From assembly GCA_001004665.1 (NCBI GenBank), contig LCRO01000001.1, positions 483 to 64,482 on the forward strand: a stretch of 64,000 nucleotides of DNA, written 5' to 3'. Position numbers and translations under genes: made by a program. Shown piece by piece: positions 9,001 to 54,321 of this stretch. Under the pieces are notes generated by a model. The model saw nothing but the letters and a program-made list of their open reading frames with translations. It was not told where the DNA came from and did not search any database. The stretch is from Candidatus Adlerbacteria bacterium GW2011_GWA1_54_10. Lineage in GTDB: Bacteria > Patescibacteriota > Minisyncoccia > Phycocordibacterales > SBAW01. Each line of letters opens with the position of its first letter. The stretch's first letter is position 1.

Positions 9001-10617
9001 CTAGCTTTTCTTCTCGCGGTACTGGAGCGCTTCCAATATGTGCGAATCGTTGACGTCCGGCGATCCGTCGAGGTCCGCGATGGTGCGCGCCACTTTTATT
9101 ACGCGATGGTAGGCGCGCGGCGATAGGGAAAAGCGTGCGCCCGCTTTCTCCAGCGTGGCGCGCACCGAGCCCGTGAGCGGCACCAAATCATCGAGCTCGC
9201 GCGGCGAGAGATCACTATTTAGCTTGAGCGAAGTCGAAGCCTTGGTTTTATCCGTCGCTTTGCTCTTTTTAAATCTTTCCTTCTGTGCTGCGCGTGCGTT
9301 TAGAACGCGTTCGCGCGCGTCGCGCGTCTCGCTCCCCTGCACCGCGCGTCTTCCGAGCTCCTGAAGCTCGACCGGTCCCATCACGCTCCAAAGATCTATG
9401 CGATCGGCTATCGGTCCCGAAAGCTTGCGGCGGTACTTCTCGAGCGCGAACGGGCTACATGTGCATTCGATCTCCGGATGACCATAGTTGCCGCACGGGC
9501 ACGGATTCATCGCCGCGACAAGCGTAAAGCGCGCGGGGAAAAGAGCGGTGCCTTTGGCCCGCGCGATCGCTATAACGCGGTCCTCAAGAGGCTGGCGCAG
9601 AGCCTCGATGACGCGCCGCTCGAATTCCGGGAACTCGTCGAGGAAAAGTACTCCCCTGTGCGCTAGCGTCGCCTCGCCGGGACGCGGATTTGCGCCGCCG
9701 CCTACAATGGAAACATATGAGGAAGTGTGATGCGGCGCGCGAAACGGCGGCATCGTCATAAGCTCGTCCATGAGTGCGCCGGCTACCGAGTGTATGCCGT
9801 TTACTTCGAGTGCCTCGTCAAAGGTAAGCGGCGGCAAAATCGAGGCAAGCGCCCGCGCGAGCATGGTCTTGCCCGTCCCCGGTGGACCCGAGAGCCCCAT
9901 GTTGTGGCCTCCTGCCGCGGCGATAACAGCCGCGCGCTTTGCCGAAGCTTGTCCGCGTATGTCCTCGAATGCGAATTGCGATTCGCCGAAATCCGCTTCC
10001 AGTTTGGTTTGCGGCATGGGCTGGATTTTAAGGTTCGACCTTGAGGAGCCTTTTTTTAAGGTCAAACCTTGCGGGGTTTGGGTCAGGCGCCTCTGTTTCG
10101 TATTTACGTGCCCGACGACATCGAGGAGCGACCCCGCCCCGTAAATGTCTATGCCGTGGATGAGCGCCGCCTCGCGCGCATTCTCCAGCGGGACAAAAAT
10201 TCCGCGCTTACCCCTTTTCTTCGCTTCGGCGACGAGCTGGAGTATCCCGCGCACGCCGCACAGCCGCCCGTCAAGGGACAGTTCGCCTATGAAAAGATAC
10301 GGCTCCGGGTCGAAGCGTATGTCGCCTGCCGCCAGCAGATATGAGAGCGCAATGGGCAGGTCGAACATCGGCCCCTCCTTTTTTAAGTCCGCAGGCGCGA
10401 GTGATATGACAGTTTTTTCGTTTTTTACTTTCGGGGACTTAAAACCGCTGTGCTTTATAGCCGATGCGACCCTGTCCCGCGCCTCTTCCACAGCCTTATC
10501 CGGCAGGCCGACAATATCGAATTTGTGCAGTTGGCCCCCGGATATATCCGTCTCGACCGTTACTATATGCGGCGATAAAAGCGAAGTCTGCGCCCCGTAC
10601 ACTCTCGCGTACTGCAT
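9001..10617 (-). CDS. comM: Mg-chelatase-like AAA+ ATPase ComM/YifB. Carries an in-frame palindromic insertion encoding ...LTLKKGSSRSNLKIQP... in the linker.
   Basis: N-terminal Lon-like domain (DIVGLPDKAVEEARDRV), Walker A GPPGTGKTM, sensor and C-terminal ChlI-like region. 538 aa. Confidence 0.85.
   Translation of the reverse strand: MQYARVYGAQTSLLSPHIVTVETDISGGQLHKFDIVGLPDKAVEEARDRVASAIKHSGFKSPKVKNEKTVISLAPADLKKEGPMFDLPIALSYLLAAGDIRFDPEPYLFIGELSLDGRLCGVRGILQLVAEAKKRGKRGIFVPLENAREAALIHGIDIYGAGSLLDVVGHVNTKQRRLTQTPQGLTLKKGSSRSNLKIQPMPQTKLEADFGESQFAFEDIRGQASAKRAAVIAAAGGHNMGLSGPPGTGKTMLARALASILPPLTFDEALEVNGIHSVAGALMDELMTMPPFRAPHHTSSYVSIVGGGANPRPGEATLAHRGVLFLDEFPEFERRVIEALRQPLEDRVIAIARAKGTALFPARFTLVAAMNPCPCGNYGHPEIECTCSPFALEKYRRKLSGPIADRIDLWSVMGPVELQELGRRAVQGSETRDARERVLNARAAQKERFKKSKATDKTKASTSLKLNSDLSPRELDDLVPLTGSVRATLEKAGARFSLSPRAYHRVIKVARTIADLDGSPDVNDSHILEALQYREKKS
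10027..10072. repeat. Palindromic mini-element copy 1 (tttaaggttcgaccttgaggagcc-ttttttt-aaggtcaaaccttg), in-frame inside comM.
   Basis: Inverted repeat aaggttcgacctt / aaggtcaaacctt. 22/23 nt identical to the copy in pnp. Encodes GSSRSNLK on the coding strand. Confidence 0.7.
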
Positions 10618-11106: not shown

Positions 11107-12267
11107 TTACTGCGCGAGCGGGACTATGGGGGAGCTCGAGAGGCGGGATATTACTTCGCGCAGGGTGTATTCGTTGGTCGTTATCAGTATCGTATTGCGG
11201 GACAGGAAGGTCCATAGCAACAATATATCGCCGCCCTCGTTCTGAATGACGCGCGCATCGCGGTTCTCTACGATTTTGTCGGTAAAACCGGACGACAGGA
11301 CCGCACTCGGAGACGTTGAAGAATTGGTTAAAGTCTTCTGTTCCGCCGAAGGAGTTGCCGCACGCAGAGGAGCCTTGCGATCGAAAAGCGGCGAAAGGTC
11401 GCCCTGCATCGTGCGTTCCCACGCGAGCATGCCCGAGAACCCTTGCTCGTATGAGTCGACGCGCAAAATGAGAAGCGGCTGATTCTCGTCAAAAATATGT
11501 ATGCCAAGCAGATATGCCGGCTCCAGAGTCCGCACTAATTCCCCAGGCAGATAGGGTGCGAGAATATCAAGAAGCCGCGGCGCGGTAAGAAGCTCGGGCA
11601 CGCCGTCCTCCTGCTCCGCGGGAGTGGCGGGATACAGCCGCGCCACAGATCCAAGGGAAAGTGACTCGCCCTTGCGCGCCGCGTCGAGTTTTTGAATCAA
11701 AGCCGCGCGCGTATCCTCTCGCGCTACCTCGATAATGGTCGTATCGTCCACAAAGATAAACGGTGCCTGCAGTTGCCCTGCTATGGGTACAGAAGTATCG
11801 CGCGTCAGAACGAGATACAGCGCCCCCGCCGCCGCGGCTAGCAACAGAATCCCGCCAATAGTGAGAGCGGTCCTTTTGAGAAGCGTGTTTTGTTCCGGAT
11901 GGGGTGCCGCTTCTTTTTGCGAAGTTCCGCCTTGCGCCCTCCTTTCGGCCTCCGCGGCCGCGACGGAAACTACCGATACGTTTTTCTGCTCGATGACCCT
12001 CTCGATGTCTCTTTGATAGGTTTGTATCGGCTTTACGCCGTCCTCCCGCGCGGGCGAAGCGGCAGAGCCCAAGGGCGACGCCTTGGGGAGCCCCGGTGTT
12101 AAGGCGTCGCCTTGAATGCCGTCCGCTGGCTTCAGCGTAGCTTTTTGCTCTTGTTCCAAAAGAGCCCCGGCATTTACCCGCTGGGCGCTATCGGGTGAAA
12201 CCGATTCCTTTTTTGGAAGCAGGATTTTATCAAGATCTATCTTGTCTCCGCCCGTTTGGTCCGCCAT
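11107..12267 (-). CDS. Hypothetical membrane-anchored protein.
   Basis: 386-aa ORF with a central TM segment LTIGGILLLAAAAGALYLVL and no recognisable domain. The 5' end overlaps the pnp 3' end, so the true start may be an internal Met. Confidence 0.45.
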   Translation of the reverse strand: MADQTGGDKIDLDKILLPKKESVSPDSAQRVNAGALLEQEQKATLKPADGIQGDALTPGLPKASPLGSAASPAREDGVKPIQTYQRDIERVIEQKNVSVVSVAAAEAERRAQGGTSQKEAAPHPEQNTLLKRTALTIGGILLLAAAAGALYLVLTRDTSVPIAGQLQAPFIFVDDTTIIEVAREDTRAALIQKLDAARKGESLSLGSVARLYPATPAEQEDGVPELLTAPRLLDILAPYLPGELVRTLEPAYLLGIHIFDENQPLLILRVDSYEQGFSGMLAWERTMQGDLSPLFDRKAPLRAATPSAEQKTLTNSSTSPSAVLSSGFTDKIVENRDARVIQNEGGDILLLWTFLSRNTILITTNEYTLREVISRLSSSPIVPLAQ

Positions 12268-14431
12268 TGTTTTCTGATGTCTTAAGCCCCTTGCGAAACG
12301 CGAATTCCGGATCCGCGGCTTTTATGGAGAAATTGATCCGGCCCTTCTCGTCTATCTCTTTTATCATAACCCGCACTTTGTCCCCAACAGAGACCGCTTC
12401 AGAGATCTTTCCGATGCGGAACGGCGCGACTTCGGAAACATGAACAAGCCCCTCGGCATCCTTTGACGGCCCTATCTTGACGAATGCGCCGAAATCCATA
12501 AGCCGGGTCACTTCGCCCTCGTAAACTTCGCCGGGCATATACTCCTTTACTATCTGTTCTATCATCTCGCGTGCTTTTTGCGCCGTGCCGCTTTTGCCCG
12601 TGATATAGACCGAGCCGTCATCCTCTATAGTGATGTCATCCACGCCTGCGGAGTCCCTTATTCCGTTTATAGTTTTGCCTCCGCCGCCGATGACAAGCCC
12701 GATCTGGTCGGGGCGCACGCGCATTGAGATTATCTCCGGAGCGCGCGGGCTTAACTTGGCGCGCGGGGCGGGTATCTCCTTTTCCATAAGGTCCAAAATC
12801 TGCATGCGCGCGGCGCGCGCGCCTTCAAGCGCTTCCGTCAATATCGGCACCGGCACGCCGCCGAGCTTGATGTCCATTTGAATGGCCGTTACCCCGCCGC
12901 GCGTGCCGGCGACCTTAAAGTCCATGTCGCCATGGCTGTCTTCCGGACCCTGAATGTCGGTAAGAATTTTATAAACATTCGCGCCTCTCATCATTAAACC
13001 CATCGCTATTCCCGCGACCGGCGCTTTTATGGGGACGCCGCCGTCCATAAGCGCGAGAGTCGAAGCGCAGGCCGAACCCATCGAGGTACTGCCGTTGCTG
13101 GCAAAGCATTCCGAAACGAGGCGGATTGTGTACGGGAACTGCTCCTGGCTCGGCAGGACAGGCTCAAGCGCCTTTTGTGCGAGCGCGCCGTGTCCTATGG
13201 CGCGGCGATTGATGCCGCCCATCCTCCCAGTCTCTCCACCCGAGTACGGAGGAAAGTTGTAATGATGCATAAAGCGCCGCTTCTCCTCCTGCGATTCCAT
13301 GGTATCGACGAGCAGGGAGTCGCCGGGTCCGCCCAAAGTAAGCGCGGTGAACACATGCGTGCCTCCGCGGTAGAAGATACCCGAGCCGTGGAGAACGGGA
13401 GAGATGCCGCCGGCTTTTGCAAAAAGCCGGCGTATCTCGCCCATGCCGCGCCCGTCGGCGCGCTTGCCCTCCTCTATCGCCCCGCGATGTATTTCTTCGT
13501 CTATTTTGTCCTCGAAGTATCTGTCCGCGATCTTAAGGTTCGACCTTGAAGAGCCCTGGTCTGAGGTCGAACCTTGGGTTTCAAGCGCCCCGGCCTTCTC
13601 CAGCCACTCCTTTTTAAGCGCGTAAATATTTTTCTTTCCCGCCTCGCCGCAGAAGACCGTCTCTCCAAGGCGAGGGGCGAACTCCGCCTTGAACAATTCG
13701 GTAAGTGCGGTGGACAATTCGGGCTCCGGCGCGGGGCGCTTTTGCTTCCCGACCTCTGCGATTATGTCCTCTTGCCATGCGAGCAACTTGGAGTGCTCGG
13801 CGACCGCGCTCTCGAACGCCGCCGCTATCGTTTTTTCGTCCGCCTCCTTCGCCGCGACCTCTACCATGTTTATTGTCGTGTCTTTTCCGCAGGCAAGTGT
13901 ATCGAGCGAGGCTCTGTCGCGCTGTTCGTAAGTCGGATTAATCACAAAGGCGTCGCCTTGAGAAATCAGTCCGATACGCACGGCCGCGACGGGCCCGTTC
14001 CACGGGATATCGGAGGTCGCAAGAGCAAGAGATGCCGCGTTTACCGCCACCTGCGCCGGGTCGTCCTCATCAAGCGAGAGCACGGTGATTATGACCTGTA
14101 CCTCGTTGCGGATGTGGCCTGGGAAAAGCGGGCGGATGGTGCGGTCGACGATGCGTCCGGAGAGTATGGCCTCTTCGCTGGGCCTCCCTTCGCGGCGCAT
14201 AAAGCGCGAACCGAGTATGGCGCCAGCCGCATAGAAGCGCTCCTCATAGTCTACGGTGAGCGGAAAGTAGTCGATGTCGTCGCGCGTCTTTTCGGACATG
14301 ACCGCGGTTGCGAGGACCGTGGTGTTTCCGTAGCGCAGTAGGCACGAGCCGCTTGCGTTCTCCGCCAGATCGGTAAACTCGGCGGTCATGGTTTTGCCGC
14401 CGATGTCTATGGAATAACTTTTGCTTTGCAT
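12230..14431 (-). CDS. pnp: Polyribonucleotide nucleotidyltransferase (PNPase). Carries an in-frame palindromic insertion encoding ...ETQGSTSDQGSSRSNLKIADRY...
   Basis: Two RNase PH domains, a KH domain and an S1 domain. N-terminus MQSKSYSIDIGGKTMTAEFTDLAENASGSCLLRYGNTTVLATAV. 733 aa. Classic rpsO-pnp neighbourhood. Confidence 0.92.
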   Translation of the reverse strand: MQSKSYSIDIGGKTMTAEFTDLAENASGSCLLRYGNTTVLATAVMSEKTRDDIDYFPLTVDYEERFYAAGAILGSRFMRREGRPSEEAILSGRIVDRTIRPLFPGHIRNEVQVIITVLSLDEDDPAQVAVNAASLALATSDIPWNGPVAAVRIGLISQGDAFVINPTYEQRDRASLDTLACGKDTTINMVEVAAKEADEKTIAAAFESAVAEHSKLLAWQEDIIAEVGKQKRPAPEPELSTALTELFKAEFAPRLGETVFCGEAGKKNIYALKKEWLEKAGALETQGSTSDQGSSRSNLKIADRYFEDKIDEEIHRGAIEEGKRADGRGMGEIRRLFAKAGGISPVLHGSGIFYRGGTHVFTALTLGGPGDSLLVDTMESQEEKRRFMHHYNFPPYSGGETGRMGGINRRAIGHGALAQKALEPVLPSQEQFPYTIRLVSECFASNGSTSMGSACASTLALMDGGVPIKAPVAGIAMGLMMRGANVYKILTDIQGPEDSHGDMDFKVAGTRGGVTAIQMDIKLGGVPVPILTEALEGARAARMQILDLMEKEIPAPRAKLSPRAPEIISMRVRPDQIGLVIGGGGKTINGIRDSAGVDDITIEDDGSVYITGKSGTAQKAREMIEQIVKEYMPGEVYEGEVTRLMDFGAFVKIGPSKDAEGLVHVSEVAPFRIGKISEAVSVGDKVRVMIKEIDEKGRINFSIKAADPEFAFRKGLKTSENNGGPNGRRQDRS
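13533..13577. repeat. Palindromic mini-element copy 2 (ttaaggttcgaccttgaagagccctggtctgaggtcgaaccttgg), in-frame inside pnp.
   Basis: Inverted repeat aaggttcgacctt / aggtcgaacctt. Encodes GSSRSNLK, identical to the comM peptide. Confidence 0.7.
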
Positions 14432-15599: not shown

Positions 15600-16505
15600 T
15601 TGTGCGACACTAAACAAATGAAAGATCTGAAGTTCTTCAAAAACGAATTTCTTGAATATTTGGAGATCGAAAAAGGCCGGTCGGTAAAAACGGTAGAGAA
15701 TTACGATAGGTATCTTGTCCGCTTCCTGTCGCATGCCAATGTCGGCAAGCCGGATGAGATAAGCGAAAAAGTTATCCGCGAGTTCCGCCTGCATTTGAAC
15801 AGACAAAATCTAAAACTAAAAACTCAAAACTTCTACCTGATCGCCTTGCGCGCCTTTCTCAAATTTTTACGCAGGCGCGAGATCGGAAGTTTGAATCCGG
15901 AGCGGATAGAACTTGCAAGGATAGGAGCACGCGACCTCGATTTGATATCCTCCGACGAACTCGATCGCCTGATGCGGGCCCCAACGGGCGGTACTCTGGT
16001 TTCTTTCCGAGGCCGGGCCATATTGGAGCTCTTATTTTCTACCGGTTTGCGCGTCTCGGAACTTTGCCGGCTCAATCGAGACTTGGATCTGTCTCGCGAC
16101 GAGTTCTCTGTCCGCGGCAAGGGCGAGAAGGTACGCGTCGTTTTTCTCTCCTCCGCCGCCAAGAAGGCCGTCAGGGATTACCTAGACAGGCGCGGCGACA
16201 TTGACGAGGCGATGTTCGTCCAAATGGCCAGAAATGCCGGCGATGGCGATTTGCGGATAACACCGCGCAGCGTGGAGCGCCTTGTCAAACACTACGCCGT
16301 CAGGGCGGGCATCACGCGCAAGGTCACTCCGCACGTAATAAGGCATTCTTTCGCGACCGACCTGCTTGAGAACGGCGCCGATCTCCGCTCGGTGCAGGCA
16401 CTGCTCGGCCACGCCAACATAGCGACGACGCAGGTTTACACGCATGTCACTGACAGACACCTGCGCGAGGTTCATAAAGCCTTCCACGGCAAAAGAAGAA
16501 AATGA
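15600..16505 (+). CDS. xerD: Tyrosine site-specific recombinase XerC/XerD family.
   Basis: N-terminal SAM-like domain (FLEYLEIEKGRSVKTVENYDRYL). Catalytic motifs RHSFATDLLENGADLRSVQALLGHANIATTQVYTHV. An alternative start at 15618 is possible. Confidence 0.85.
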   Translation: MCDTKQMKDLKFFKNEFLEYLEIEKGRSVKTVENYDRYLVRFLSHANVGKPDEISEKVIREFRLHLNRQNLKLKTQNFYLIALRAFLKFLRRREIGSLNPERIELARIGARDLDLISSDELDRLMRAPTGGTLVSFRGRAILELLFSTGLRVSELCRLNRDLDLSRDEFSVRGKGEKVRVVFLSSAAKKAVRDYLDRRGDIDEAMFVQMARNAGDGDLRITPRSVERLVKHYAVRAGITRKVTPHVIRHSFATDLLENGADLRSVQALLGHANIATTQVYTHVTDRHLREVHKAFHGKRRK

Positions 16506-17611: not shown

Positions 17612-17700
17612 TTGTAAAGGACATAAAGGACATTGTAAAGGACATTATCCACACAATGTCCTTTATACGAAATATTTCTTCTGGATGTCCTTTATCTCCT
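17612..17700. repeat. Cluster of AAAGGACAT direct and inverted repeats (three direct taaaggacat, two inverted atgtccttta) at the 3' end of cca.
   Basis: Read directly: gtaaaggacataaaggacattgtaaaggacattatccacacaatgtcctttatacgaaatatttcttctggatgtccttta. Further copies at 19446-19470 (perfect palindrome ataaaggacat-tttt-atgtcctttat) and 19911-19933 (two direct copies). Confidence 0.6.
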
Positions 17701-19381: not shown

Positions 19382-19513
19382 CAAAAAGGCGATAAAAGAC
19401 ACCCAAATCGCTTGTTTCTGTGGAAAAGACTGTGAAGATGTGCATAAAGGACATTTTTATGTCCTTTATGGTTACTATAGTAACGATTTGTTTTCACGTG
19501 AACCGTATTATAT

Positions 19514-20023: not shown

Positions 20024-21163
20024 TTACCGCCCGTCGAGGGCGGAGATGAGTTGTGCAGTAAGGCCGGGGACGACCGTGGCGTTAAAAAGCGCAGCTTTTG
20101 CCGCAAGATCGCCGGAGAGAAGCCCTTTTATACCCCCGTGTCCCGCGCTTTTCAGGCTCTCATCAATGTGGGAGAGAGTTATGGCGCGCAGATCGCGCTC
20201 GCCAGTAGAACCTTCAAGTATTGCGGTCGAAATTATCCCGCCGAGCCTGCCGCTTTTAAGTGGTACTGCGGCTCCGCCCGAAGAACCGCTTTGGGAGAGT
20301 ATTGTGCCGCCTATGGAAAAAAGGTCAATGTCGTCCGCCGTGCCCTCGAAGGAATAAAGGCGGGTTAGATAGGCGAGCGCCGAGCTTGCATAAAGGTTGG
20401 TTGCTATCGTCTCGCCGGAAAGAAATCCGGCCGGATAGGCGGCAAGAAGTATTTGTTCGCCAAGCGTCCGCTCGCCTATGTCAGGCTCAAGAGCAGGGAA
20501 GTGGGAAGGCAGGGGATTTTTGGGGTTATACGGGCCGGTAATAAGCAAAAATGCATAATCCCTCTCGCCCGTGCCGAGGGCCCGCTGCTCTGCAATTTGG
20601 GGGGCGTTCTCCGCCACCCATGTAGGCGGGAGATAAAGCAGGGCGGCGCGGTATTGCGGCTCGGCTGGGCTCCCAGCGCGCACGATGCAGTCAATATTAC
20701 CGGGCATGCCGTAGTCGCGCAAAAGGAAATATTGCGCGACGTGTGCGGCTGTCAAAATTACGCCGCGGCTGTCCACGATAACGCCGCTGCCGGAAATGGG
20801 GTTGAGATAGCCGCCGCGCAGTGTGGTGCAGACAATATTTATCAGCGCCGCGCGCGTTTCGGTATTTAACTGTGAGAACGACTTCGCGGGCGCGTCGGCA
20901 GGCTCCAGCGGTTCCGGGATTTTCGCCGCGGGAGTGACAGAAGGCAACTCCTCGCCCGCTTGCGGAGAGGTGTTGCCTTGAGGGGCTGTAAGTTGCGGCT
21001 CCGGCTCTTGCATGGTTACTCGCGTTGTCGTCGCTATATCCTGCGTCGGCGCTGGAGCTTGGGTCACCACCTGCGGTGCCGCGCCAAAAAGCGTAGCAAT
21101 TGCAACAATCACTACGGCAAAAAACCTTGCCACGGCGTCAATTAATCCGTAGATAAATTCCAT
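20024..21163 (-). CDS. Secreted trypsin-like (S1 family) serine protease.
   Basis: N-terminal TM/signal VVIVAIATLFGAAPQ. His motif GVILTAAHVAQ. Ser motif GSSGGAAV. 379 aa. Confidence 0.7.
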   Translation of the reverse strand: MEFIYGLIDAVARFFAVVIVAIATLFGAAPQVVTQAPAPTQDIATTTRVTMQEPEPQLTAPQGNTSPQAGEELPSVTPAAKIPEPLEPADAPAKSFSQLNTETRAALINIVCTTLRGGYLNPISGSGVIVDSRGVILTAAHVAQYFLLRDYGMPGNIDCIVRAGSPAEPQYRAALLYLPPTWVAENAPQIAEQRALGTGERDYAFLLITGPYNPKNPLPSHFPALEPDIGERTLGEQILLAAYPAGFLSGETIATNLYASSALAYLTRLYSFEGTADDIDLFSIGGTILSQSGSSGGAAVPLKSGRLGGIISTAILEGSTGERDLRAITLSHIDESLKSAGHGGIKGLLSGDLAAKAALFNATVVPGLTAQLISALDGR

Positions 21164-28337: not shown

Positions 28338-29762
28338 ATGTACGCGGAGGAGGCGCTTAGGGATTTTTTAATTGATGTGGGACTTGTGTCGAAAAGTCAA
28401 ATGGAAGTCCTTGGCGGCGAGAAGGTTTCGCGGTCGCTCATTGAGCGGGGAATACTATCCGAAGACGAACTATGCAAGGCGCTCGCGCACGTGCACGGCA
28501 TACCTTTTATCGAGCTCGACGTGGACGATATTTCGCAGGACGCACTTGCCGTTATACCCGAGCCGCTCTCGCGGGGACATTCGATAATAGGATATCGAAT
28601 GTCGGAAAACAAGCTCGAGGTTGCCCTGCTCGACCTTGTCGCGCTTGAGGAGCTGGAATTTTTGCGTCCGCGTTACAAAATTTTGCCGCGCCTGACCGAC
28701 AAAGAATCGATAAAACGCGGACTTCTTGCGTATCAAAAGTATCTGCGCGGGAAATACGGCAAGGCGCTCAAGGAGGAGGGTGACCCCGATCGCATGGCGC
28801 GGCATCTGCTCGCCCACGCGCTCGCGCAGGGCGCGAGCGCGGCGCATTTAGAGCCCGGCGATTCCGGTGTCTTAGTGCGCCATCGCATCAATGGCGCCTT
28901 GCGCGACGCGATTCTGCTTCCGCAAAGCATGCAGACGGCTCTGGAGGGTATATTCCCCAAAGACGGATGGATAGCGGTGGACATCGGCGTCGGCTCGGAC
29001 ATCAAAGTGCGCGTAGCGCGCCCTGGCGGAGGAAAGATCGTTCTCAATCTGCGCGGTGCCGCTTTTGAGCCTCTTGGGTTTCATGGCGAGGCGCTCGAGC
29101 AGTTAGAGCGCGCGGTTTCGCGCCGGCACCTGCCTGCGCAGGCAGGCGGAGTCGTCGCAATAGAGGGCGAGGGCAAGTCTATGCTTTTGAGAACCATAAA
29201 AGAGATCGTTTCGGCGCCCGATATTTCGATCGCAGATGTCGGCTCTTCCGCCGCGGCGCGCGTCGCGCTTAAAGCCGATCCGGACGTTATATTTATGAAC
29301 GGCATGCGCGACAGCGAGAGCGCCGCTCTCGCCGCAAGCGGCGCGGCGCGCGGCATATTCGTCGTCGTCGCGGTCGAGGGTGGGGGGTTGATCGGGGAGG
29401 CGCTTATAGTTCGGCAGGCGCTGGCGCGCAGGCTCTGCCAAAAGCAATTTTTTGACAAACGGCCTCTATCGCGGCTTGAGCAGAATGCACTCGAGCCTCA
29501 TGCAGATTTCATCCGCGTGCTCTCCGCGCTAAAAGAAGAGGGTGTTGTAGGAAAAGAAACGCCTTGGAAGGAAGTCAAATTCGCGCGCGCCGTGCCCTGC
29601 AGCGAGTGCCGCGGAGGATATGCCGGCGACATAGGCCTGCAGGAGGTTTCCGCCGGCGGAACTCGCATAGGCCTTAATTTGGCGGAAGACGGTCTCTTCA
29701 AGTCCGCGCAAGGGCAGACGAGCCTCGAGGAGGTATTGTCCATGCTGTATGATGGCAGGTGA
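28338..29762 (+). CDS. PilB/GspE-family (type II secretion / type IV pilus assembly ATPase) paralog with degenerate catalytic motifs. Putative pseudo-ATPase with an N-terminal MshEN/GspE_N-like domain and a C-terminal zinc-ribbon.
   Basis: Family motifs retained: DIKVRVARPGGGKIVLNLR (RvS...GEk.VlRiL), ADPDVIFMNGMRDSESAALA, RQALARRLC, C-terminal CSECRGGYAGDIGLQEV. Walker A reads AIEGEGKSM instead of GPTGSGKTT. The Walker B Asp/Glu and His-box residues are not recognisable. Confidence 0.65.
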   Translation: MYAEEALRDFLIDVGLVSKSQMEVLGGEKVSRSLIERGILSEDELCKALAHVHGIPFIELDVDDISQDALAVIPEPLSRGHSIIGYRMSENKLEVALLDLVALEELEFLRPRYKILPRLTDKESIKRGLLAYQKYLRGKYGKALKEEGDPDRMARHLLAHALAQGASAAHLEPGDSGVLVRHRINGALRDAILLPQSMQTALEGIFPKDGWIAVDIGVGSDIKVRVARPGGGKIVLNLRGAAFEPLGFHGEALEQLERAVSRRHLPAQAGGVVAIEGEGKSMLLRTIKEIVSAPDISIADVGSSAAARVALKADPDVIFMNGMRDSESAALAASGAARGIFVVVAVEGGGLIGEALIVRQALARRLCQKQFFDKRPLSRLEQNALEPHADFIRVLSALKEEGVVGKETPWKEVKFARAVPCSECRGGYAGDIGLQEVSAGGTRIGLNLAEDGLFKSAQGQTSLEEVLSMLYDGR

Positions 29763-30592: not shown

Positions 30593-31715
30593 AGACATCA
30601 AAGACGCGGACATAGAGAACAAGCGCACATTGGTTCGCGTCGATTTTGACGTCCCTATCGCGGAGGGCCGCATCCTGGACGACGTGCGCATCAAAGCTGT
30701 CATTCCAACTCTTGAGCTGCTACACGAGAGCGGTGCCGCAAAAATTACTCTCATAGCGCACCTCGGCCGCCCCAATGGAAAAACAGTCGAGTCGCTACGT
30801 CTTGTACCCGTAGAAGCGCGCCTGCGCGAGCTGACGAAAGTGCCGTTTGAAATGCGGGAAAATCTGCGCTTCGACCCGCGCGAGGAGGCTAATGACGAAA
30901 ACTTTGCAAAAGAGTTGGCGGCGCTTGGCGATATATATGTAAACGAGGCCTTCGCCGACAGCCATCGTGCGCACGCCTCGATCGTGGGCGTACCGAAATT
31001 CCTTCCATCATATGCGGGCCTGCGCTTTATGAAGGAGGTCGATAAGTTGCGCGAGGCGCAGACACCGCCGGTAGGCTCCGTGGCCGTCATCGGCGGAGCA
31101 AAATTCGAGACTAAGGAACCGCTCTTGCGCAACCTGCTATCCGCGTACTCGCAGGTCCTGCTTGGCGGAGCGCTGGCAGACGACGTACTAAAGGCGCGCG
31201 GCATGCCAGTAGGCGAGTCGCTTGTAGCGGAAGTTGGCGTGCCGACGGAGCTTGCGGGTAGCGAACGCATTCTCGTACCGGCCGATGTGTATCTCGAGGA
31301 AGAGGACGACAAGGGGAGCGCCCGGGCGGCAATGACCGGCGATGTGCGCAAGGAGGAGCGGATAGTGGACATAGGCCCCTCCACGGCCGCGACATGGGCG
31401 CAAAAAATTTCCGAGGCTCCTTTCGTGCTTTGGAACGGTCCCATGGGCATTTACGAGGAAGGATATCGCGCTGGCACGGATGCTCTGGCTGTAGCGCTCA
31501 TCAAGGGCGGCGCAAGGGCAATAGTTGGAGGCGGCGACACTCTAGCCGCTTTGCGCTCCATACAAGATTCTACCTTAAAACAAGGTTCATCGAGGCCGGA
31601 CCTTGATGAAATCGAAAAAAGCGGCCGTATTTTCTTTTCAATGGGCGGCGGGGCAATGCTTAAATATCTCGCCGAGGGCACTCTTCCGGGGCTTGAGGCT
31701 TTGACAAGACGCTAG
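30579..31715 (+). CDS. pgk: Phosphoglycerate kinase. Carries an in-frame palindromic insertion encoding ...STLKQGSSRPDLDEIEKS... near the C-terminus.
   Basis: RVDFDVP, IAHLGRP, GGAKFETKEP, GGGDT and SMGGGA motifs. 378 aa. Overlaps tpiA by 14 nt in a different frame, so it is not a fusion. Confidence 0.92.
   Translation: MPEIRDIKDADIENKRTLVRVDFDVPIAEGRILDDVRIKAVIPTLELLHESGAAKITLIAHLGRPNGKTVESLRLVPVEARLRELTKVPFEMRENLRFDPREEANDENFAKELAALGDIYVNEAFADSHRAHASIVGVPKFLPSYAGLRFMKEVDKLREAQTPPVGSVAVIGGAKFETKEPLLRNLLSAYSQVLLGGALADDVLKARGMPVGESLVAEVGVPTELAGSERILVPADVYLEEEDDKGSARAAMTGDVRKEERIVDIGPSTAATWAQKISEAPFVLWNGPMGIYEEGYRAGTDALAVALIKGGARAIVGGGDTLAALRSIQDSTLKQGSSRPDLDEIEKSGRIFFSMGGGAMLKYLAEGTLPGLEALTRR
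31581..31608. repeat. Palindromic mini-element copy 3 (caaggttcatcgaggccggaccttgatg), in-frame inside pgk, in opposite genomic orientation to copies 1 and 2 but the same coding orientation.
   Basis: Core ggttcatcgaggccggacctt matches the reverse complement of the comM/pnp core ggctcYtcaaggtcgaacctt at 16/21 positions. Stem caaggttc/ggaccttg. Encodes QGSSRPDLD. Confidence 0.55.
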
Positions 31716-37785: not shown

Positions 37786-39543
37786 ATGGCGCAATACAAA
37801 TTACGGGAGCGGCGGCATGAGAATTTGCTTGACGATCTGTTGCTTGCCCGAGGCGTCGCGCCGGAGGAGAAAGAAATTTTTTTGAATCCCGATTTCGAGC
37901 GCGACTCACATGACCCGCTTTTGCTCCCCGATATGGGGTGTGCGGTCGAGCGGATACTGTCCGCGAAAAAAAATAACGAAAAAACGGCGGTTTGGAGCGA
38001 CTACGACTGCGACGGCATACCTGGCGGCGCGATGCTCGCGGAATTTTTGCGCACGCTCGGTATGCAGGTCGTCCATTACATCCCGCATCGGCATGAGGAG
38101 GGGTACGGTTTGAATGTATCGGGCATAGACAAGCTGAAGAAGCAAAACGTATCACTTATCATTACCGTCGACTTGGGCACTGCCGACCATGGATGCATTT
38201 CGCATGCGAAAAGTGAAAATATCGACACAATAGTTACCGACCATCACCTGGTGCCGATGGCAAAACAAGCCGAGACGAGCATTGCGCAGCGCGACGGCGC
38301 GAGCATAGCAAATTTCCAGCAGGAAATTATGCGCGCGAGGCGAGGCTTGGTTTTGCCGGAGGCTTTAGCGGTCATTAATCCAAAGCGTGCAGACAGCAAG
38401 TATCCGTTCCCCGACCTTTGCGGCGCGGGGGTCGCGTGGAAGCTGATACAAGCGATATTGCAAAAAATTAGAGCGTCGGGGCAACCCTTCGACTACGCTC
38501 AAGGTAAAGAAAAATGGCTTTTGGATTTGGTCGGGCTCGCGACGCTCTCGGACATGGTGCCCTTGCTGGGAGAGAATCGCATGCTCGCGCATTTTGGCCT
38601 GCGCGTCCTGCGCCGAGCGAGGCGCCCCGGTCTTTCGGCGCTCTTTAGCCTTCTGCGCATTAAGCCCGCAACTCTCACAGAGGACGACGTCGGCTTTATG
38701 ATATCGCCGCGCATAAACGCCGCATCGCGAATGGACTCTCCCGAGCTGGCCGCGCGCCTGCTTATAGCGCGCAGCGCAGAGGAAGCGCTCCCGCTTGCCA
38801 AGGAACTCGACAAGATCAATGACGAGCGCAAAGGGCTTGTCGCGGCCACGGTCAAAGAGGTCAACAAGCGCCTCAACCTTGCCGGAGCGGTGGGCGACCT
38901 AGTGGTGATGGGGAGCCCAAGTTGGCGTCCGGGCATACTGGGCCTCGTGGCTAACTCGCTGGTAGAGCATCGCGGCGGCACGGTGTGCTTGTGGGGGCGC
39001 GAAGGGGGCGAGATGATACGCGGCAGCTGCCGAAGCGGCGAAGTCAATATAGTGGAGCTGATGGGCGAGGCGGGCGGGCTCGAGGAGTTCGGAGGGCACC
39101 GGGGGTCGGGCGGATTTTCGGTCGGCGAGGGGCAGGTACACGAGCTTTCGGCGCGATTCTCCGCCGCGTACGAAAAGGTTCGCGCGCAAACGAGCGCGGC
39201 GCAGGAAATATTTATAGACCGCGAACTCGATCTTGCCGAGGCGTCTCACGCGCAAAAAAATCTGGAGCGCCTCGCTCCGTTCGGGATCGGTTTTGAAAAG
39301 CCGCTGTTTATCTTCCCTGGAGTTTCCATAGGAGGCATTCGTGCATTCGGCAAACAGCAAAATCACTTGGAACTGCGTCTCTCGCGCCACTCGACCCCGC
39401 TTGGGATAAACGGCATAGCATTTTTCTCGGGTATTGATTCTTTTTCCAAAAAAATTGCGGCGGGAGACAGCGCCGACATAGTGGGGCACATAGAGCGCGA
39501 TTGGCGCGGTGCCCCACGTCTGCGCATCGTTGATGTTATTTGA
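37786..39543 (+). CDS. recJ: Single-stranded-DNA-specific exonuclease RecJ.
   Basis: DHH motifs VWSDYDCDGIPGGAML and ITVDLGTADHGCISHAKSENIDTIVTDHH, plus a DHHA1 region. 585 aa. Confidence 0.88.
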   Translation: MAQYKLRERRHENLLDDLLLARGVAPEEKEIFLNPDFERDSHDPLLLPDMGCAVERILSAKKNNEKTAVWSDYDCDGIPGGAMLAEFLRTLGMQVVHYIPHRHEEGYGLNVSGIDKLKKQNVSLIITVDLGTADHGCISHAKSENIDTIVTDHHLVPMAKQAETSIAQRDGASIANFQQEIMRARRGLVLPEALAVINPKRADSKYPFPDLCGAGVAWKLIQAILQKIRASGQPFDYAQGKEKWLLDLVGLATLSDMVPLLGENRMLAHFGLRVLRRARRPGLSALFSLLRIKPATLTEDDVGFMISPRINAASRMDSPELAARLLIARSAEEALPLAKELDKINDERKGLVAATVKEVNKRLNLAGAVGDLVVMGSPSWRPGILGLVANSLVEHRGGTVCLWGREGGEMIRGSCRSGEVNIVELMGEAGGLEEFGGHRGSGGFSVGEGQVHELSARFSAAYEKVRAQTSAAQEIFIDRELDLAEASHAQKNLERLAPFGIGFEKPLFIFPGVSIGGIRAFGKQQNHLELRLSRHSTPLGINGIAFFSGIDSFSKKIAAGDSADIVGHIERDWRGAPRLRIVDVI

Positions 39544-39547
39544 AAGC

Positions 39548-39970
39548 ATGGAGAAAATAATTATCTACACCGACGGGGGGGCGCGGGGGAATCCTGGACC
39601 CGCGGGCATCGGCGTGGTGATTCAGGACGAAAATGGAGAAACGCTGAAAGAAGTTTCCGGATATATCGGTGAGACTACTAATAATCAGGCCGAGTACGAG
39701 GCGCTTGTACACGCCCTGGGGGAAGCAAAAAAAATTTTTGGCGCAAAGCTGCGCGAGATGCAAATAGAAGTGCGCATGGACAGCGAACTTGTGGTGCGCC
39801 AGCTCTCCGGGCTTTACAAGGTCAAGGAGCCCGGGCTCAAAGAGCAGTTCGCGCGCGTCGCGAGGATACGGCTTGAGGACGCCCCTAATATCATTTTTAC
39901 CCACGTGCGCAGGGAAAAAAATAAGCAGGCTGACAAGCTGGTGAACAAAGCGATTGATGCGGCGCAATAA
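39548..39970 (+). CDS. rnhA: Ribonuclease HI.
   Basis: IIIYTDGGARGNPGPAGIGVVI ... TNNQAEYEALVHAL ... D-E-D-D active-site pattern. Start taken at MEKII inside ORF 39509..39970. Confidence 0.85.
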   Translation: MEKIIIYTDGGARGNPGPAGIGVVIQDENGETLKEVSGYIGETTNNQAEYEALVHALGEAKKIFGAKLREMQIEVRMDSELVVRQLSGLYKVKEPGLKEQFARVARIRLEDAPNIIFTHVRREKNKQADKLVNKAIDAAQ

Positions 39971-41294
39971 ACTCGTTCTACTGTTTTTGCTCGCCGCGAC
40001 GATTTTTGTTTTTCGCATTGAATTCTTTTTGCAAAGCGAGCGAGAGCGCTCGGTCGCGCCGTATATAGGACCGGCAGTTGTCGAGGGAGAGGTCGCGGGC
40101 GACCCCGAGCGGCGCGCGTCAAGCCTGCATGCGCAGATAGAAGTCTCCAGGGTAAATAACGGGCCAGCGGCCGGAAGACTGCTTTCGATATTTCCACCCG
40201 GGGCCGCGCTCTCGTACGGAGACCGCGTTACAGTGCGCGGAAAAATAGAATTGCCGGAAGCGTTCGAGACGGATACGGGCAGAGTCTTCGATTATTCCGG
40301 CTACCTGCGTGCGCACGGAGTTTCGGCTCTCATGCAAAATGCGACATTGGTAAAGCGCGAAGCAGGAGGATGGTCCGTGCAGGTGGCGCTGTATGGACTA
40401 AAGCACTCGTTCGAGCGCGCGATAGAACGCGCTCTGCCCGAGCCGCAAAGCTCGCTACTCCAAGGAATAACTCTCGGCGAGAGGCGCGGCATATCCGAGG
40501 AACTCAATCGGGCGTTCGTAGTTTCCGGACTCGTGCACGTGGTCGTGCTCTCCGGCTATAATATCTCCATAGTCGCGCTGGCGATTTTTTATTTGTTCGG
40601 TTTTTTGCCGCGTCGCGCCGGGCTTTTCGCGGGCGCATTCGCGATGATTTTATTTGTCCTTATGATAGGTGCCGGAGCGACAGCCTTGCGCGCACTCTTA
40701 ATGGGCCTAATAGGGGTGCTCGCGCAACTTTTGCGGCGGCCTCGTCTTGCACTGCGCAGTCTCGGAGCGGCTGGCGCGGCGATGTTCCTCTGGAATCCGG
40801 CAGTATTTTACGATCCTTCTTTCGTACTCTCGATGCTTGCGACCTTCGGCCTTATCACGCTCGCCCCGTCGGTTGAGAAAATATTTTCTTTTCTTCCTGA
40901 ATGGGGAGTTCTACATGCACGCTCCATCGCCGCTTCGACCGTTGCCGTGCAGATCTATATTCTGCCCGCACTCCTTTATTACATCGGCGTACTTTCTTTT
41001 GCCGCACTGCCGGCCAACATGGCGGCGCTGCCCGTTGTCGCTGGCGCGATGTTCGGCGGCTTTATTACCGGCATTTTGGGAATGATAAACGGCACGCTGG
41101 CGTTCCTGCCCGCGCTCTTGACCAATATGCTCTTGCGCTGGATCGAGTTCGTCGCCACAACGGCCGCGTCATTTCCGCTCTCATCAACCGTTATTCCCGC
41201 ATTCCCAATGTGGGCTGCAGTAGTTATTTATGTGCCACTGACTTTTATTGCGACGAGGCTTTATCGAAGCGCTTCTCCATCACGCCCCAATTAA
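39954..41294 (+). CDS. comEC: ComEC/Rec2-family DNA internalisation channel (competence domain only).
   Basis: DUF4131-like N-terminal domain, then the competence domain with AFVVSGLVHVVVLSGYNISIV and multiple TM helices. 446 aa. No C-terminal metallo-beta-lactamase domain. Confidence 0.8.
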   Translation: MMRRNKLVLLFLLAATIFVFRIEFFLQSERERSVAPYIGPAVVEGEVAGDPERRASSLHAQIEVSRVNNGPAAGRLLSIFPPGAALSYGDRVTVRGKIELPEAFETDTGRVFDYSGYLRAHGVSALMQNATLVKREAGGWSVQVALYGLKHSFERAIERALPEPQSSLLQGITLGERRGISEELNRAFVVSGLVHVVVLSGYNISIVALAIFYLFGFLPRRAGLFAGAFAMILFVLMIGAGATALRALLMGLIGVLAQLLRRPRLALRSLGAAGAAMFLWNPAVFYDPSFVLSMLATFGLITLAPSVEKIFSFLPEWGVLHARSIAASTVAVQIYILPALLYYIGVLSFAALPANMAALPVVAGAMFGGFITGILGMINGTLAFLPALLTNMLLRWIEFVATTAASFPLSSTVIPAFPMWAAVVIYVPLTFIATRLYRSASPSRPN

Positions 41295-43085: not shown

Positions 43086-43165
43086 GTTTTTTAAAAAGAC
43101 GACACCTTGCGGCTTGCCGAAAGGTGTCGCCTTGACGGCTCGAATGGTATCATGTTTCCAATCGT

Positions 43166-43845: not shown

Positions 43846-44253
43846 ATGGCACGAATATCCCAGCTTGCCCGCAAGGGACGCAAACAATTTAACCGGAAAT
43901 CGAAGGCGCCGGCGCTCCAGCGCGGCTTCAACACGCTCAAAAATCGCCCGGTCTTCTATCCATCGCCCTTCAAGCGCGGAGTATGCACTAAAGTAACTAC
44001 GACGACACCGCGCAAGCCCAACTCCGCCATACGTAAAATAGCGCGCGTGCGGCTTACCAACGGGCAGGAGATAACGGCTTATATTCCCGGCGAGGGGCAC
44101 AACCTGCAGGAGCACTCGGTGGTCTTGGTCCGCGCGGGGCGAGTCAAGGACATCAATGTGCGCTACCAGATAGTGCGCGGCAAGCTCGATGCCGCGGGCC
44201 TAGAGAAGCGCCGCGTGTCGCGCTCGCGTTATGGCGGCAAGAGGCCGAAATAA
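43846..44253 (+). CDS. rpsL: 30S ribosomal protein S12.
   Basis: [48 protein letters not shown]-type signature. Heads the str operon. Confidence 0.95.
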
Positions 44254-54108: not shown

Positions 54109-54309
54109 ATGAAAAAACTCGACCTTACAAAGCACACGCAGGAAGACCTGAATAAGCTCGTCGCGCAAAAACGCGAGGAATTGCGGGCCTTGCGTTTTGC
54201 CGTAGCCGGCAGTAAAAATCGCAATGTCAAACTGGCGCGCGTCTTGCGCAAGGAAATAGCGCGGGCGCTGACAAGGTTAAGCCTTAACGCCAGGACTCCC
54301 AAGGTTTAA
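54109..54309 (+). CDS. rpmC: 50S ribosomal protein L29.
   Basis: MKKLDLTKHTQEDLNKLVAQKREELRALRF. Start at the internal Met of ORF 54085..54309. Confidence 0.85.
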   Translation: MKKLDLTKHTQEDLNKLVAQKREELRALRFAVAGSKNRNVKLARVLRKEIARALTRLSLNARTPKV

Positions 54310-54321
54310 CCTTTAACTCAC

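Follow-up and report, generated by a model that had tools for sequence, protein, structure and literature searches.

A small in-frame palindromic element within pnp of a Candidatus Adlerbacteria bacterium, a probable member of a translated repeat family in Patescibacteria

The pnp locus and its palindromic element

The window (the whole stretch of DNA that was analysed, 64,000 nucleotides in length) contains pnp, an open reading frame encoding PNPase, with a short palindromic element in its interior (Table 1). The aa sequence matches that of the PNPase in a Candidatus Adlerbacteria MAG at 100% identity, and the identical protein is present on 17 contigs from several sources. A check of the window letters located the element where an earlier inspection of the letters (the sequence-only reading) had placed it inside pnp. 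The ends proposed there, 13533–13577, are slightly off; the best-supported extent is either the 48 nt common with a copy in comM or the 14-codon core. Similarly, the peptide was rightly taken as an insertion, but its limits differ: the core insert in PNPase is 14 codons, or 16 counting a shared KI, and the leading T is part of the flank.

Table 1. Positions in the window of the pnp element, its parts, its host gene and the other hairpins discussed
Feature	Position	Strand	Remarks
Host gene pnp	12230..14431	-	733 aa; RNase_PH x2, KH, S1
48-nt palindromic element in pnp	13529..13576	-	conceptual translation QGSTSDQGSSRSNLKI, PNPase residues 286-301
14-codon core of the pnp element	13535-13576	-	
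First arm of the pnp element	13535-13547	+ strand reading	AAGGTTCGACCTT; near-palindrome in itself, AAGGT-TCG-ACCTT
15-nt loop of the pnp element	13548-13562	+ strand reading	GAAGAGCCCTGGTCT; coding strand is AGACCAG + GGCTCTTC
Second arm of the pnp element	13563-13575	+ strand reading	GAGGTCGAACCTT; reverse complement of the first arm
Sister copy, comM/yifB-like Mg-chelatase-family gene	10024..10071	-	QGLTLKKGSSRSNLKI, residues 183-198
Decayed copy in pgk	31563..31604	+	QDSTLKQGSSRPDL, residues 329-342; arms now unpaired
L29 copy	54272..54313	+	encodes the last 11 codons, RLSLNARTPKV, the C-terminal tail
Variant with different arm centre	12072..12113	-	AAGG-CGACG-CCTT / AAGG-CGTCG-CCCT; 16-nt loop with GGGCTCCCC
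Looser AAGG...CCTT hairpin	20941..20979	-	inside trypsin-like protease ORF 20024-21163
Looser AAGACGACACCTT...AAGGTGTCGCCTT hairpin (family membership uncertain)	43096..43133		intergenic, between L28-like gene and ORF 43166-43804

The pnp and comM elements display inverted arms of 12–13 bp (AAGGTTCGACCTT / AAGGTCGAACCTT) and a 15-nt loop that includes GGCTCYTC. The stem of the pnp element is a perfect 12 bp, or 13 bp if one G-T pair is included. As single-stranded DNA, the pnp/comM element gives a predicted fold of −12 to −14 kcal/mol (z = −2.6 to −3.7). The PNPase peptide has a duplicated GS(T/S) motif, which had been interpreted as an internal repeat of the insertion. This is not the case, i.e. 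QGST is encoded by arm 1 (CAA GGT TCG ACC) and QGSS by the loop motif (CAG GGC TCT TCA); the real internal repeat is inverted, and the second arm, which is in a different frame, reads RSNL. An example of a predicted tryptic peptide that covers the element is AGALETQGSTSDQGSSR. The element does not have the form of an intrinsic terminator: it sits inside an open reading frame and no T run follows the hairpin. A search of Rfam gave no family, introns included, at the gathering threshold, and permissive settings yielded only miRNA/snoRNA noise (E = 5–10).

The insert falls in the region that separates the two RNase PH domains, as the sequence-only reading had it. More exactly, in the AF2 model it sits in the turn that joins helices 267–287 and 292–321 of the all-alpha domain, with pLDDT <50 at residues 288–293. 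This place is predicted to be the tip of a helical hairpin in the alpha domain.

Other copies in the window

The repeat finder (family D7) shows an 83% identity over 48 nt between the pnp and comM copies. Both are on the coding (minus) strand of long open reading frames and have the identical reading frame, which bears out the proposal that they are the same element. The comM copy is in the linker from the ChlI N-domain to the AAA+ domain. The 12-mer arm occurs four times in the window, all within these two elements (0.18 expected; 0 of 100 shuffles reach 4), and a 23-mer, GGCTCYTCAAGGTCGAACCTTAA, occurs twice (0.00 expected).

At least three more diverged copies are present, so that the 64 kb holds two near-identical and at least five copies in all, compared with about zero in shuffles. 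The PNPase, ComM and PGK domains continue in one frame on both sides of the element; the long open reading frame that runs through the pnp segment supports the in-frame reading first given for it. A decay series is formed by the pgk copy and by peptides such as GKGQFLRQGAKELSLGSRL in ComM and QGLTLDPALPRLNL in PNPase. The stop codon of L29 (54307–54309) falls within the second arm of its copy, just upstream of the S17 start. The variant with a different arm centre is in frame with a hypothetical open reading frame (11107–12267) and gives the peptide QGDALTPGLPKASP. Membership of the hairpin in the protease open reading frame is uncertain because the GGCTCYTC motif is missing. The element count is about 5–7 per 64 kb, a density of ~1 per 9–13 kb.

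A Pfam scan of 23 of the ~75 candidate open reading frames in the window showed no Y1/RAYT, IS110 or DDE transposase; the one recombinase that it matched, a large enzyme of the serine type, is encoded at the window end in a prophage-like region. ORF 15600–16505 appears to encode a Xer-type tyrosine recombinase, judging from its sequence and the Pfam annotation of positional counterparts in related loci. Competence genes encoded in the window are those for ComEC, ComM and a type IV pilus ATPase.

Distribution and architecture of the family

A 21-nt pattern scan that covered 185,579 species genomes yielded 43 loci. About 33 are from Patescibacteria (~24 genomes), with paired arms in nearly all, and a paired arm was found in none of the 10 non-CPR matches. 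The family is recovered from many independent studies and from Patescibacteria only. It is also patchy, as it is absent from ~1 Mb of related pnp loci: a PNPase-based metagenome scan of 80 such loci (1.08 Mb) gave just two loosely similar hairpins. Blastn searches of PLSDB plasmids and GenBank phages found no similar DNA, and a paired-arm scan of IMG/VR gave one unrelated match, a high-GC phage that carries four GAAGGTnnnACCTTC palindromes in tandem. Literature searches with the arm sequences, the peptides, and CPR together with palindromic, MITE or in-frame elements produced nothing that describes the family. This family of tiny, putatively translated palindromic elements in Patescibacteria (CPR bacteria) is previously undescribed.

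The family displays two inverted 13-nt arms, AAGGT-NNN-ACCTT, with mutually complementary centres, and a loop of 10–16 nt; the conserved 8-mer GGCTCYTC adjoins one arm. Element size is ~36–54 nt. Arm plus loop lengths are 36, 37, 40, 41 and 42 nt, mostly not multiples of three, yet all copies are in frame. Arm pairing is 97.7%, double-sided changes are found at three pairs, and the covariation score was reached by 0 of 500 shuffles. The covariation is confined to the centre, where arm “dialects” occur (TTCGA, TCCGA, TCTGA), and the outer AAGGT/ACCTT bases are invariant across Patescibacteria classes. Arms were never found singly, always as inverted pairs. There is a preference for C before the arms and A after them, and composite or duplicated copies are seen in P0130, P0161 and L018:7501. 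The loop is present in both orientations among the copies, and several frames are used.

The arms are stop-free in all six frames. That the whole element is stop-free in six frames was considered and rejected, as this is true for the arms alone and type A has four open frames. Of 47 copies, 38 are inside open reading frames that stay open for at least 40 codons on either side, and these would be translated; every intragenic copy leaves one frame uninterrupted over hundreds of codons to its left and right. The reading phase of the arms is skewed (RxxL 44, GxT 24, KVxP 8), with hydrophilic readings favoured, i.e. QG[SP]TL..GSSRS[ND]L or RSDL...RSDL. Host proteins include LeuRS, and genome maintenance makes up ~10 of the 23 host gene families (LigA, UvrB, UvrC, UvrD, RecG, RuvC, SMC, ComM, ComEC, XseA). 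In scattered lineages, the elements occupy the same loops of PNPase, ComM, LigA, LeuRS, GatC and L29.

Occupied and empty orthologous sites

P0005, the PNPase closest to the one studied here (~80% identity), lacks 16 residues by comparison and shows just “PGS” at the insert site, and ~100 of 120 PNPase relatives show a short ELKDIKPG-type loop there. The pnp segment is an addition relative to close orthologues, as had been claimed. The sequence-only reading had named as refuting any orthologues with an equivalent segment but no mobile-element signature. Some orthologues (L018, L132) do carry an equivalent segment, but in the DNA it is the same palindrome, and relatives devoid of the insert are interspersed with them. 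In other lineages the same PNPase loop holds a second hairpin insert that is unrelated, and the cyanobacterial PNPase structure 8zaw aligns through the insert region without a gap. The PGK segment is missing from 115 of 120 orthologues, which have a fixed-length loop, and the ComM element is present or absent between proteins that are 92%–96.5% identical. Presence and absence were mapped on NJ trees with poor resolution of the deep branches, which serve for qualitative purposes only.

From three occupied/empty nucleotide pairs (81%–83% nt identity) and one protein pair with 96.5% identity, no insertion boundary or target-site duplication is definable, because the entire linker differs between the two alleles in all four pairs. 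A CTTAAG-like target at the empty PNPase site is unsupported, as the “LK” codons vary (CTA AAG, CTC AAA, TTA AAA).

At the ComM site, the arms show a 90% identity across 10 genomes (45 genome pairs). The controls are 42.5% for the first seven loop bases and 44.8% for gene-wide third positions, i.e. saturated. When the window is compared with L035, the element has the same base at 14 of 14 third positions, against a 46% background; the high identity is limited to the 42-nt element, and the adjoining linker is unalignable. The arm conservation at the ComM site is not predicted by simple neutral decay of junk DNA.

Origin of the element

The pnp segment is probably, if by no means certainly, a copy of a family of translated, RPE/REPIN-like, very small palindromic insertion elements of Patescibacteria. 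Copies would survive inside protein-coding genes because they are translated. A copy may persist if the full length of the insert is divisible by three, the frame is hydrophilic, and the site is a surface loop or interdomain linker. New copies would come from an enzyme that acts in trans, recognises the hairpin by its conserved AAGGT/ACCTT and, by analogy with REP/REPIN-RAYT and IS200/IS605, probably works on single-stranded DNA. Arm complementarity could be maintained by selection or because one arm serves as the template for its partner, and the same permissive loops may be repeatedly hit or refreshed; the occupancy of one loop in scattered lineages requires target specificity or long persistence. 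Several results count against this reading: the scanned window open reading frames have no transposase, a boundary or target-site duplication is not definable, the lengths are mostly not multiples of three, one loop is occupied in scattered lineages, the distribution is patchy, and the arms at ComM are conserved.

The last of these gives weight to another explanation, in which the hairpin has a host function. It would act in cis, as DNA or RNA, and be a conserved site that a conserved protein binds or processes, functionally comparable to REP/BIME sites. Since intergenic space is almost absent from these genomes, the signal would lie within coding sequence, where selection keeps it at orthologous positions. 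The ComM arm identity, the unchanged third positions shared with L035, the invariant outer bases with covariation only in the centre, and the genome-maintenance genes among the hosts are all consistent with this. Because arm identity is twice neutral across genomes with saturated synonymous sites, the AAGGT-N3-ACCTT stem and GGCTCYTC can be viewed as a sequence-specific nucleic-acid signal kept in genome-maintenance and RNA-metabolism genes and read by a conserved protein. A domesticated recombinase specific for hairpins might use it as its substrate and return to the same loops; alternatively, it might be a host element akin to REPs or uptake signals, pushed into open reading frames by scarce intergenic DNA. 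Both the general and this more specific form are considered unlikely. The presence/absence polymorphism between closely similar ComM proteins, the numerous decayed copies, the lack of the family in most related genomes, and the use of both loop orientations and several frames argue against a maintained signal, and the arm conservation is equally explicable if insertion is repeated and the masters capable of transposition are under constraint. A structure specific to the mRNA strand was also rejected: stem mismatches show no strand bias (G-U wobble, 4 sense and 3 antisense), which is evidence against mRNA-level structure. An uptake-signal-like drive, in which the arms serve the competence machinery as a DNA-uptake or recombination signal and spread by transformation and homologous allele replacement, would account for the same site being occupied in scattered lineages with the whole linker replaced between alleles, for the skewed host genes and arm dialects, and for the company of competence genes in the window. 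It is nevertheless improbable, since the arms occur exclusively as inverted pairs, their density is ~10 times below that of known uptake sequences, and the identity between the window and L035 stops at the 42-nt element; with the linker beside it unalignable, there is no sign of co-transferred flanks.

Two further explanations have very little likelihood. Removal of the hairpin from the mRNA, by an intron-like process or excision by a nuclease plus ligase, was raised as a possibility in the sequence-only reading, and a stable inverted-repeat hairpin is reported to trigger “SOS splicing” of transposons in animal mRNAs (PMC12779559). The open frames that flank intragenic copies, their strong skew to hydrophilic readings, and the lack of an Rfam intron or other family match speak against removal; moreover, most of the hairpin lengths (36–42 nt) are not divisible by three, and excision of the hairpin only would therefore shift the frame. 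Equally hard to credit is that no insertion took place and that the segment is a low-complexity linker of ancestral origin, similar by chance, or an artefact of assembly. The PNPase alpha-helical domain is indeed length-variable, and 8zaw aligns gap-free, but a 48-nt match between unrelated genes has an expectation of 0, the DNA palindrome is conserved where the peptide frame is variable, and close orthologues are empty. With the identical protein on many contigs and the family in many independent studies, this explanation is already contradicted by the repeat identity, the conserved palindrome, the empty orthologues and the multiple sources.

As insertion elements, the repeats would constitute a second system of this kind, independent of the one known earlier, much smaller, and situated within a huge uncultured radiation. 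It is tractable: the recognition sequence is extremely short and well defined, several architectures are available, the same loops in orthologues are recurrently occupied, near-identical alleles with and without the element exist, and the excess of arm conservation over neutral sites is measurable. Core enzymes (PNPase, ComM, LigA, UvrB, UvrC, LeuRS) gain 12–18 residues, and the elements mark insertion-tolerant surface loops. The length heterogeneity that results can confuse orthologue alignments and MAG quality checks.

Comparison with known repeat systems

The Rickettsia palindromic elements (RPE) are ~100–150 bp in length and confined to Rickettsia (Ogata et al. 2000, Science 290:347, as summarised in PMC10969869). 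They resemble the elements found here in being multi-copy, hairpin-forming palindromic repeats in frame within unrelated housekeeping genes, in adding peptide segments at fold-compatible positions, in having no known associated transposase, and in ranging from intact to decayed copies. The present elements are set apart by size (36–54 nt) and by host, and a sequence relationship is not expected. They also differ in that many scattered lineages have a copy in the same loop of an orthologous protein and that the arms are conserved far above neutral expectation.

MITEs likewise have terminal inverted repeats, are multi-copy without transposase coding, and occasionally form in-frame fusions. The elements found here do not exceed the minimum size described for MITEs, and no target-site duplication or parent IS was identified (PLSDB plasmids, GenBank phages and IMG/VR were searched).

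The likeness to REPINs lies in the two inverted short palindromic units with a short spacer that form a hairpin (here 13-nt arms and a 10–16 nt spacer), in long persistence at orthologous positions, in being non-autonomous, and in composite or clustered copies. REP systems have a single-copy RAYT (Y1 HUH transposase) gene in the genome with repeats flanking it; no RAYT gene was found among the 23 Pfam-scanned open reading frames of the window. REPs are extragenic, whereas most copies here are intragenic. REP/REPIN elements are mobilised by RAYT (TnpA_REP) transposases (PMC5581495; bioRxiv 10.1101/2021.07.10.451892), and the REP head is marked by a conserved GTAG or CGTC tetranucleotide (PMC3733652). 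The alignment of the present elements is without GTAG/CGTC, its ends being AAGG/CCTT together with GGCTCYTC.

With the uptake sequences (Neisseria DUS, Pasteurellaceae USS) the elements share a short motif that is tolerated at permissive positions in open reading frames, often as inverted pairs, as well as a genome-maintenance bias and lineage “dialects”. Neisseria DUS are reported to be biased towards genome-maintenance genes, and the host-gene bias seen here resembles that bias. A DNA uptake sequence is a short single motif that occurs ~1 per kb; the arms here are never single and their density is about tenfold lower. The copies here are insertions of 12–18 codons and not recoded existing codons.

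Copies of the element in pnp, comM and the rest of the window

The palindromic segment in pnp (nt 13529-13576) displays 83% identity over 48 nt with the segment at nt 10024-10071 in comM (repeat finder, family D7). The two copies have a 23-nt stretch in common (expectation 0.00 in the window), and the window contains four occurrences of the 12-nt arm, always inside these two elements, with 0.18 occurrences expected. Both lie within long open reading frames, on the coding (minus) strand, and are read in the identical frame. As single-stranded DNA, the elements have folding energies of -9 to -14 kcal/mol (z -2.6 to -3.7). The sequence-only reading had described a palindrome in pnp, which is found at nt 13535-13575, and had taken it for the comM element; the identity, common stretch and matching frame bear this out. 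Its further claim, that the insert carries an internal GS(T/S) repeat, is judged wrong. The finding itself is correct, and the pnp copy is a small visible part of a larger family that is apparently undescribed.

A profile made from the pnp and comM copies located two additional copies in the window, one in pgk, with unpaired arms, and one at the end of the ribosomal protein L29 gene. The L29 stop codon is 22 nt before the S17 start, and the L29/S17 junction of the comparison locus L002 also holds a copy. When arms of the form AAGG-N5-CCTT were sought together with a complementary partner, the window showed six hairpins, among them the variant at nt 12072-12113, versus about zero in 20 shuffles. 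In an unbiased hairpin census (55 in the window, about 13 in shuffles) the element family is the main intragenic class.

Other repeats in the window are separate from this family. A perfect hairpin about 100 nt from the pnp element, at the conserved start of the second RNase PH domain, is unrelated to it in sequence. A different, intergenic palindrome family flanks the CCA-adding enzyme gene on both sides near a tRNA cluster, and may represent operator-like or terminator sites. A conserved intercistronic sequence recurs in ribosomal-protein operons, with a 27-nt identical stretch ahead of the rpsG-like and rplV-like starts; it may act as a common signal for translation initiation or for processing.

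Positions of the element, its copies and other features (window coordinates unless a locus is named)
Feature	Position	Description
pnp element, arm 1	13535-13547	+ strand reading AAGGTTCGACCTT
pnp element, loop	13548-13562	15 nt; + strand reading GAAGAGCCCTGGTCT
pnp element, arm 2	13563-13575	+ strand reading GAGGTCGAACCTT; reverse complement of arm 1
PNPase insert peptide	ORF 12230-14431, minus strand	QGSTSDQGSSRSNLKI, residues 286-301
ComM/YifB-type Mg-chelatase-family ATPase insert peptide	ORF 9001-10617, minus strand	QGLTLKKGSSRSNLKI, residues 183-198
Decayed copy, pgk	31563-31604	reads QDSTLKQGSSRPDL, frame as in pnp and comM
L29 copy	54272-54313	last 11 codons of L29; stop codon 54307-54309 within second arm
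Variant hairpin	12072-12113	arm centre CGACG/CGTCG, family loop motif; in frame, hypothetical protein
Perfect hairpin in pnp	13408-13432	11 bp, 3-nt loop: CGCCGGCTTTT gca AAAAGCCGGCG
Intergenic palindromes	17613-17667, 19443-19470	(C)ATAAAGGACAT...ATGTCCTTTAT(G)
Intercistronic repeats	44242-44291, 51330-51367, 52646-52672, 54937-54974	..CCATTCGACAAGCTCAGGRTAAATT..
DNA-uptake and processing genes	39954-41294, 37786-39543, 28338-29762, 9001-10617	ComEC, RecJ, type II/IV secretion ATPase, ComM
Rfam LOOT RNA match	58044-58161 (+)	79.3 bits, gathering score 46.4
Phage replication-O-like ORF	59587-60114
Large serine recombinase	60605-62335
Carriers of KGRDE[RH]DPNSL	L125:2996-5215, L126:3001-5247	PNPase genes, related CPR genomes; also proteins P0016, P0031, P0032, P0050, P0075, P0077, P0088
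Tandem palindromes	L124:11324-11410	four GAAGGTnnnACCTTCC, about 20 nt spacing

Addition of the element to conserved proteins

The presence of the element is lineage-specific when compared with orthologues. An alignment of PNPase orthologs, the check proposed by the sequence-only reading, shows the insert to be an addition: at this position, a short loop of the ELKDIKPG type is found in most of the 120 closest PNPases (70-81% identity), and P0005, the nearest relative, has "PGS" there and is shorter by 16 residues. The insert had been placed between the two RNase PH domains. In agreement with this, an AlphaFold2 model (mean pLDDT 75) puts it where helix 267-287 of the all-alpha domain turns into helix 292-321, with pLDDT <50 at residues 288-293; this place is a solvent-exposed tip between the two RNase PH domains. 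In PGK, 115 of 120 orthologues have a loop of invariant length without the segment, which is found, among these 120, only in the window protein and, as the remnant LSPELRSNL, in the relative closest to it (74% identity).

The family outside the window

The element is a multi-copy family within and across genomes. One strict 21-nt pattern, GGYTCNTCRAGGYCGRACCTT, was used to scan one genome per species (185,579 species) and gave 43 loci. About 33 are from Patescibacteria (about 24 genomes), nearly all with paired arms; labels include Paceibacterota, Minisyncoccia, Nomura-, Adler- and Moranbacteria, and bins labelled Saccharibacteria. The ten non-CPR loci look like chance matches: paired arms are found in none of them, eight are without any arm-like sequence, and two have a single arm that is contained in the search pattern. 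Plasmid, phage and IMG/VR collections gave no match to the element, no Rfam family matches it, and no description was found in the searchable literature. A high-GC viral contig, L124 (IMGVR_UViG_3300039239_000044), has tandem palindromes that look like iterated operator sites; these have AAGGT/ACCTT half-sites in common with the CPR element and are otherwise unrelated.

Two architectures are seen. Type A, that of the window, is arm, 7 variable nt, GGCTCYTC, arm (loop 14-16 nt); type B is GGCTCCTC, arm, 10-11 nt loop, arm, TTCCCGCC. Long-loop variants have a nested hairpin. Hairpin potential is accompanied by covariation: arm centres are TTCGA/TCGAA, TCCGA/TCGGA or TCTGA/TCAGA, and an alignment of 17 sequences has 97.7% of its cells paired, double-sided changes occur at 3 pairs, and the observed covariation score was reached by 0 of 500 shuffles.

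Reading frames continue through the element. The arms have no stop in any of the six frames (type A has four open frames), and 38 of 47 copies are inside frames open for at least 40 codons on each side, most others being near gene or contig ends. Frame usage is biased (RxxL 44, GxT 24, KVxP 8), with hydrophilic readings dominant. Host proteins, identified by inspection of translated open reading frames, include LigA with two elements (one in the Zn-finger loop, occupied in a second genome too), UvrB and UvrC with two each, and UvrD, RecG, RuvC, SMC, ComM, ComEC, XseA, LeuRS, ArgRS, Fmt, Dus, RluD, GatC and IscS. About 10 of 23 host gene families (LigA to XseA in this list; loci L001, L031, L038, L021, L037, L005, L028/L030, L025, L036, L041) function in genome maintenance, a raw count from a small sample.

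Repeated occupation, conservation and decay

Copies are located in loops and linkers, and some of these sites are occupied repeatedly. On a poorly resolved neighbour-joining tree, the PNPase loop holds element-derived peptides in at least nine scattered places, with readings that include QGLTLTPGSPRLNL, QQDSTLNQGSARSNL and LRSDLNSGSSRSDL. PNPase orthologs with an equivalent segment but no mobile-element signature had been named as evidence against an insertion; orthologs with such a segment do exist, but in two of them (L018, L132) it is the same palindrome as in the window at the DNA level. A second, unrelated hairpin insert, KGRDE[RH]DPNSL, is present in the same loop in at least six scattered lineages. 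This insert spans about 70 nt and, as RNA, folds at -40 to -49 kcal/mol; its apex, AAAGGGAGAGATGAAC..GACCCCAACTCCCTT, is conserved, and its outer stems vary between genomes with complementarity kept.

The same interdomain linker contains the element or remnants of it in about 35 of 120 ComM orthologues, and carriers and non-carriers are as close as 92-96.5% identity. Within single 90%-identity clusters, alternative linker alleles are KTKGQTLARGSLRSDLK versus SKHPKKLM (96.5% overall identity) and GKGQFLRQGAKELSLGSRL versus GKGVTSSKAGGNTSATL (proteins P0128 vs P0393-P0399; P0139 vs P0402). Thus the linker is replaced or rewritten wholesale, rather than by simple gain or loss of the element. Repeated events at one site are evident from composite copies (proteins P0130, P0161) and from an internal duplication in L018.

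Among ten ComM-site copies, identity is 0.90 in the arms, 0.69 in the GGCTCYTC motif and 0.425 in the first seven loop bases, with 0.448 at third codon positions in the rest of the gene. The window and L035 elements are identical at 40 of 42 positions (14 of 14 third positions), and the adjoining linker is unalignable. Thus the arms are held constant over times when neutral sites saturate. Copies range from perfect to decayed; plain decay is seen in pgk and in several ComM and PNPase lineages.

Possible origin of the element

The element seems likely to be a non-autonomous palindromic insertion element that is predicted to be translated. A trans-acting enzyme may copy it by recognising the invariant AAGGT/ACCTT stem ends and the GGCTCYTC motif, probably on a single-stranded hairpin, by analogy with REP-RAYT and IS200/IS605. 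Only in-frame, hydrophilic insertions in tolerant loops would survive, and arm-on-arm templating or selection could keep the arms complementary. The mobile-element reading is reasonable, but no candidate mobilising enzyme, including a RAYT gene, was found in the 64-kb window, in which Pfam scans covered 23 of roughly 75 candidate ORFs. The window holds a prophage-like serine recombinase, a GIY-YIG protein, a YraN-like protein, ComEC and RecJ, as well as a Xer-type recombinase recognised from its ORF sequence and Pfam-annotated positional counterparts in related loci rather than from the window Pfam scan. A LOOT RNA match is just upstream of the replication-O-like and serine recombinase genes, and this end of the window is probably an integrated element. 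Neither a target duplication nor a clean insertion boundary is definable from aligned copies and alleles with and without the element.

The strongest rival, that the hairpin is a selected host signal, would account for the conservation of the arms beyond that of neutral sites and for the apparent bias of host genes to genome maintenance. It is nevertheless unlikely, given the presence and absence of the element between near-identical alleles and the many decayed copies. The stem mismatches are all transitions, with wobble on the sense strand in four cases and on the antisense strand in three; this lack of strand preference does not favour an mRNA-specific structure. Spread by an uptake-signal-like drive, for which the fairly complete DNA-uptake and processing set of the window is pertinent, would explain the same-site spread and whole-linker replacement, but identity is confined to the element itself and we consider such a drive quite improbable.

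Four other candidates were rejected: a terminator (the element is intragenic, without a T run after the hairpin); an excised intron (each copy leaves one frame uninterrupted, frame usage is biased, and most hairpin lengths are not divisible by three); a typical uptake sequence (arms are never single, and density is about 1 per 9-13 kb); and an assembly artefact. In the last case, 17 contigs that derive from several sources encode the identical PNPase, and many studies have yielded members of the family, only from Patescibacteria. A Candidatus Adlerbacteria MAG has a PNPase with 100% identity to the window protein, and the cluster of the window ComM names GW2011_GWA1_54_10 and RIFCSP bins.

Relationship to known palindromic elements

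In function the element is closest to the Rickettsia palindromic elements (RPE), which are in-frame and translated and have no known transposase (PMC10969869). In architecture it is closest to REPINs, long-persisting paired inverted copies of a small palindrome (PMC5581495; 10.1101/2021.07.10.451892). However, it is 3-4 times shorter than RPE and its host is in another phylum-level group, and it has neither the GTAG/CGTC head nor the extragenic location of REPs. The element thus belongs to neither RPE nor REPIN.
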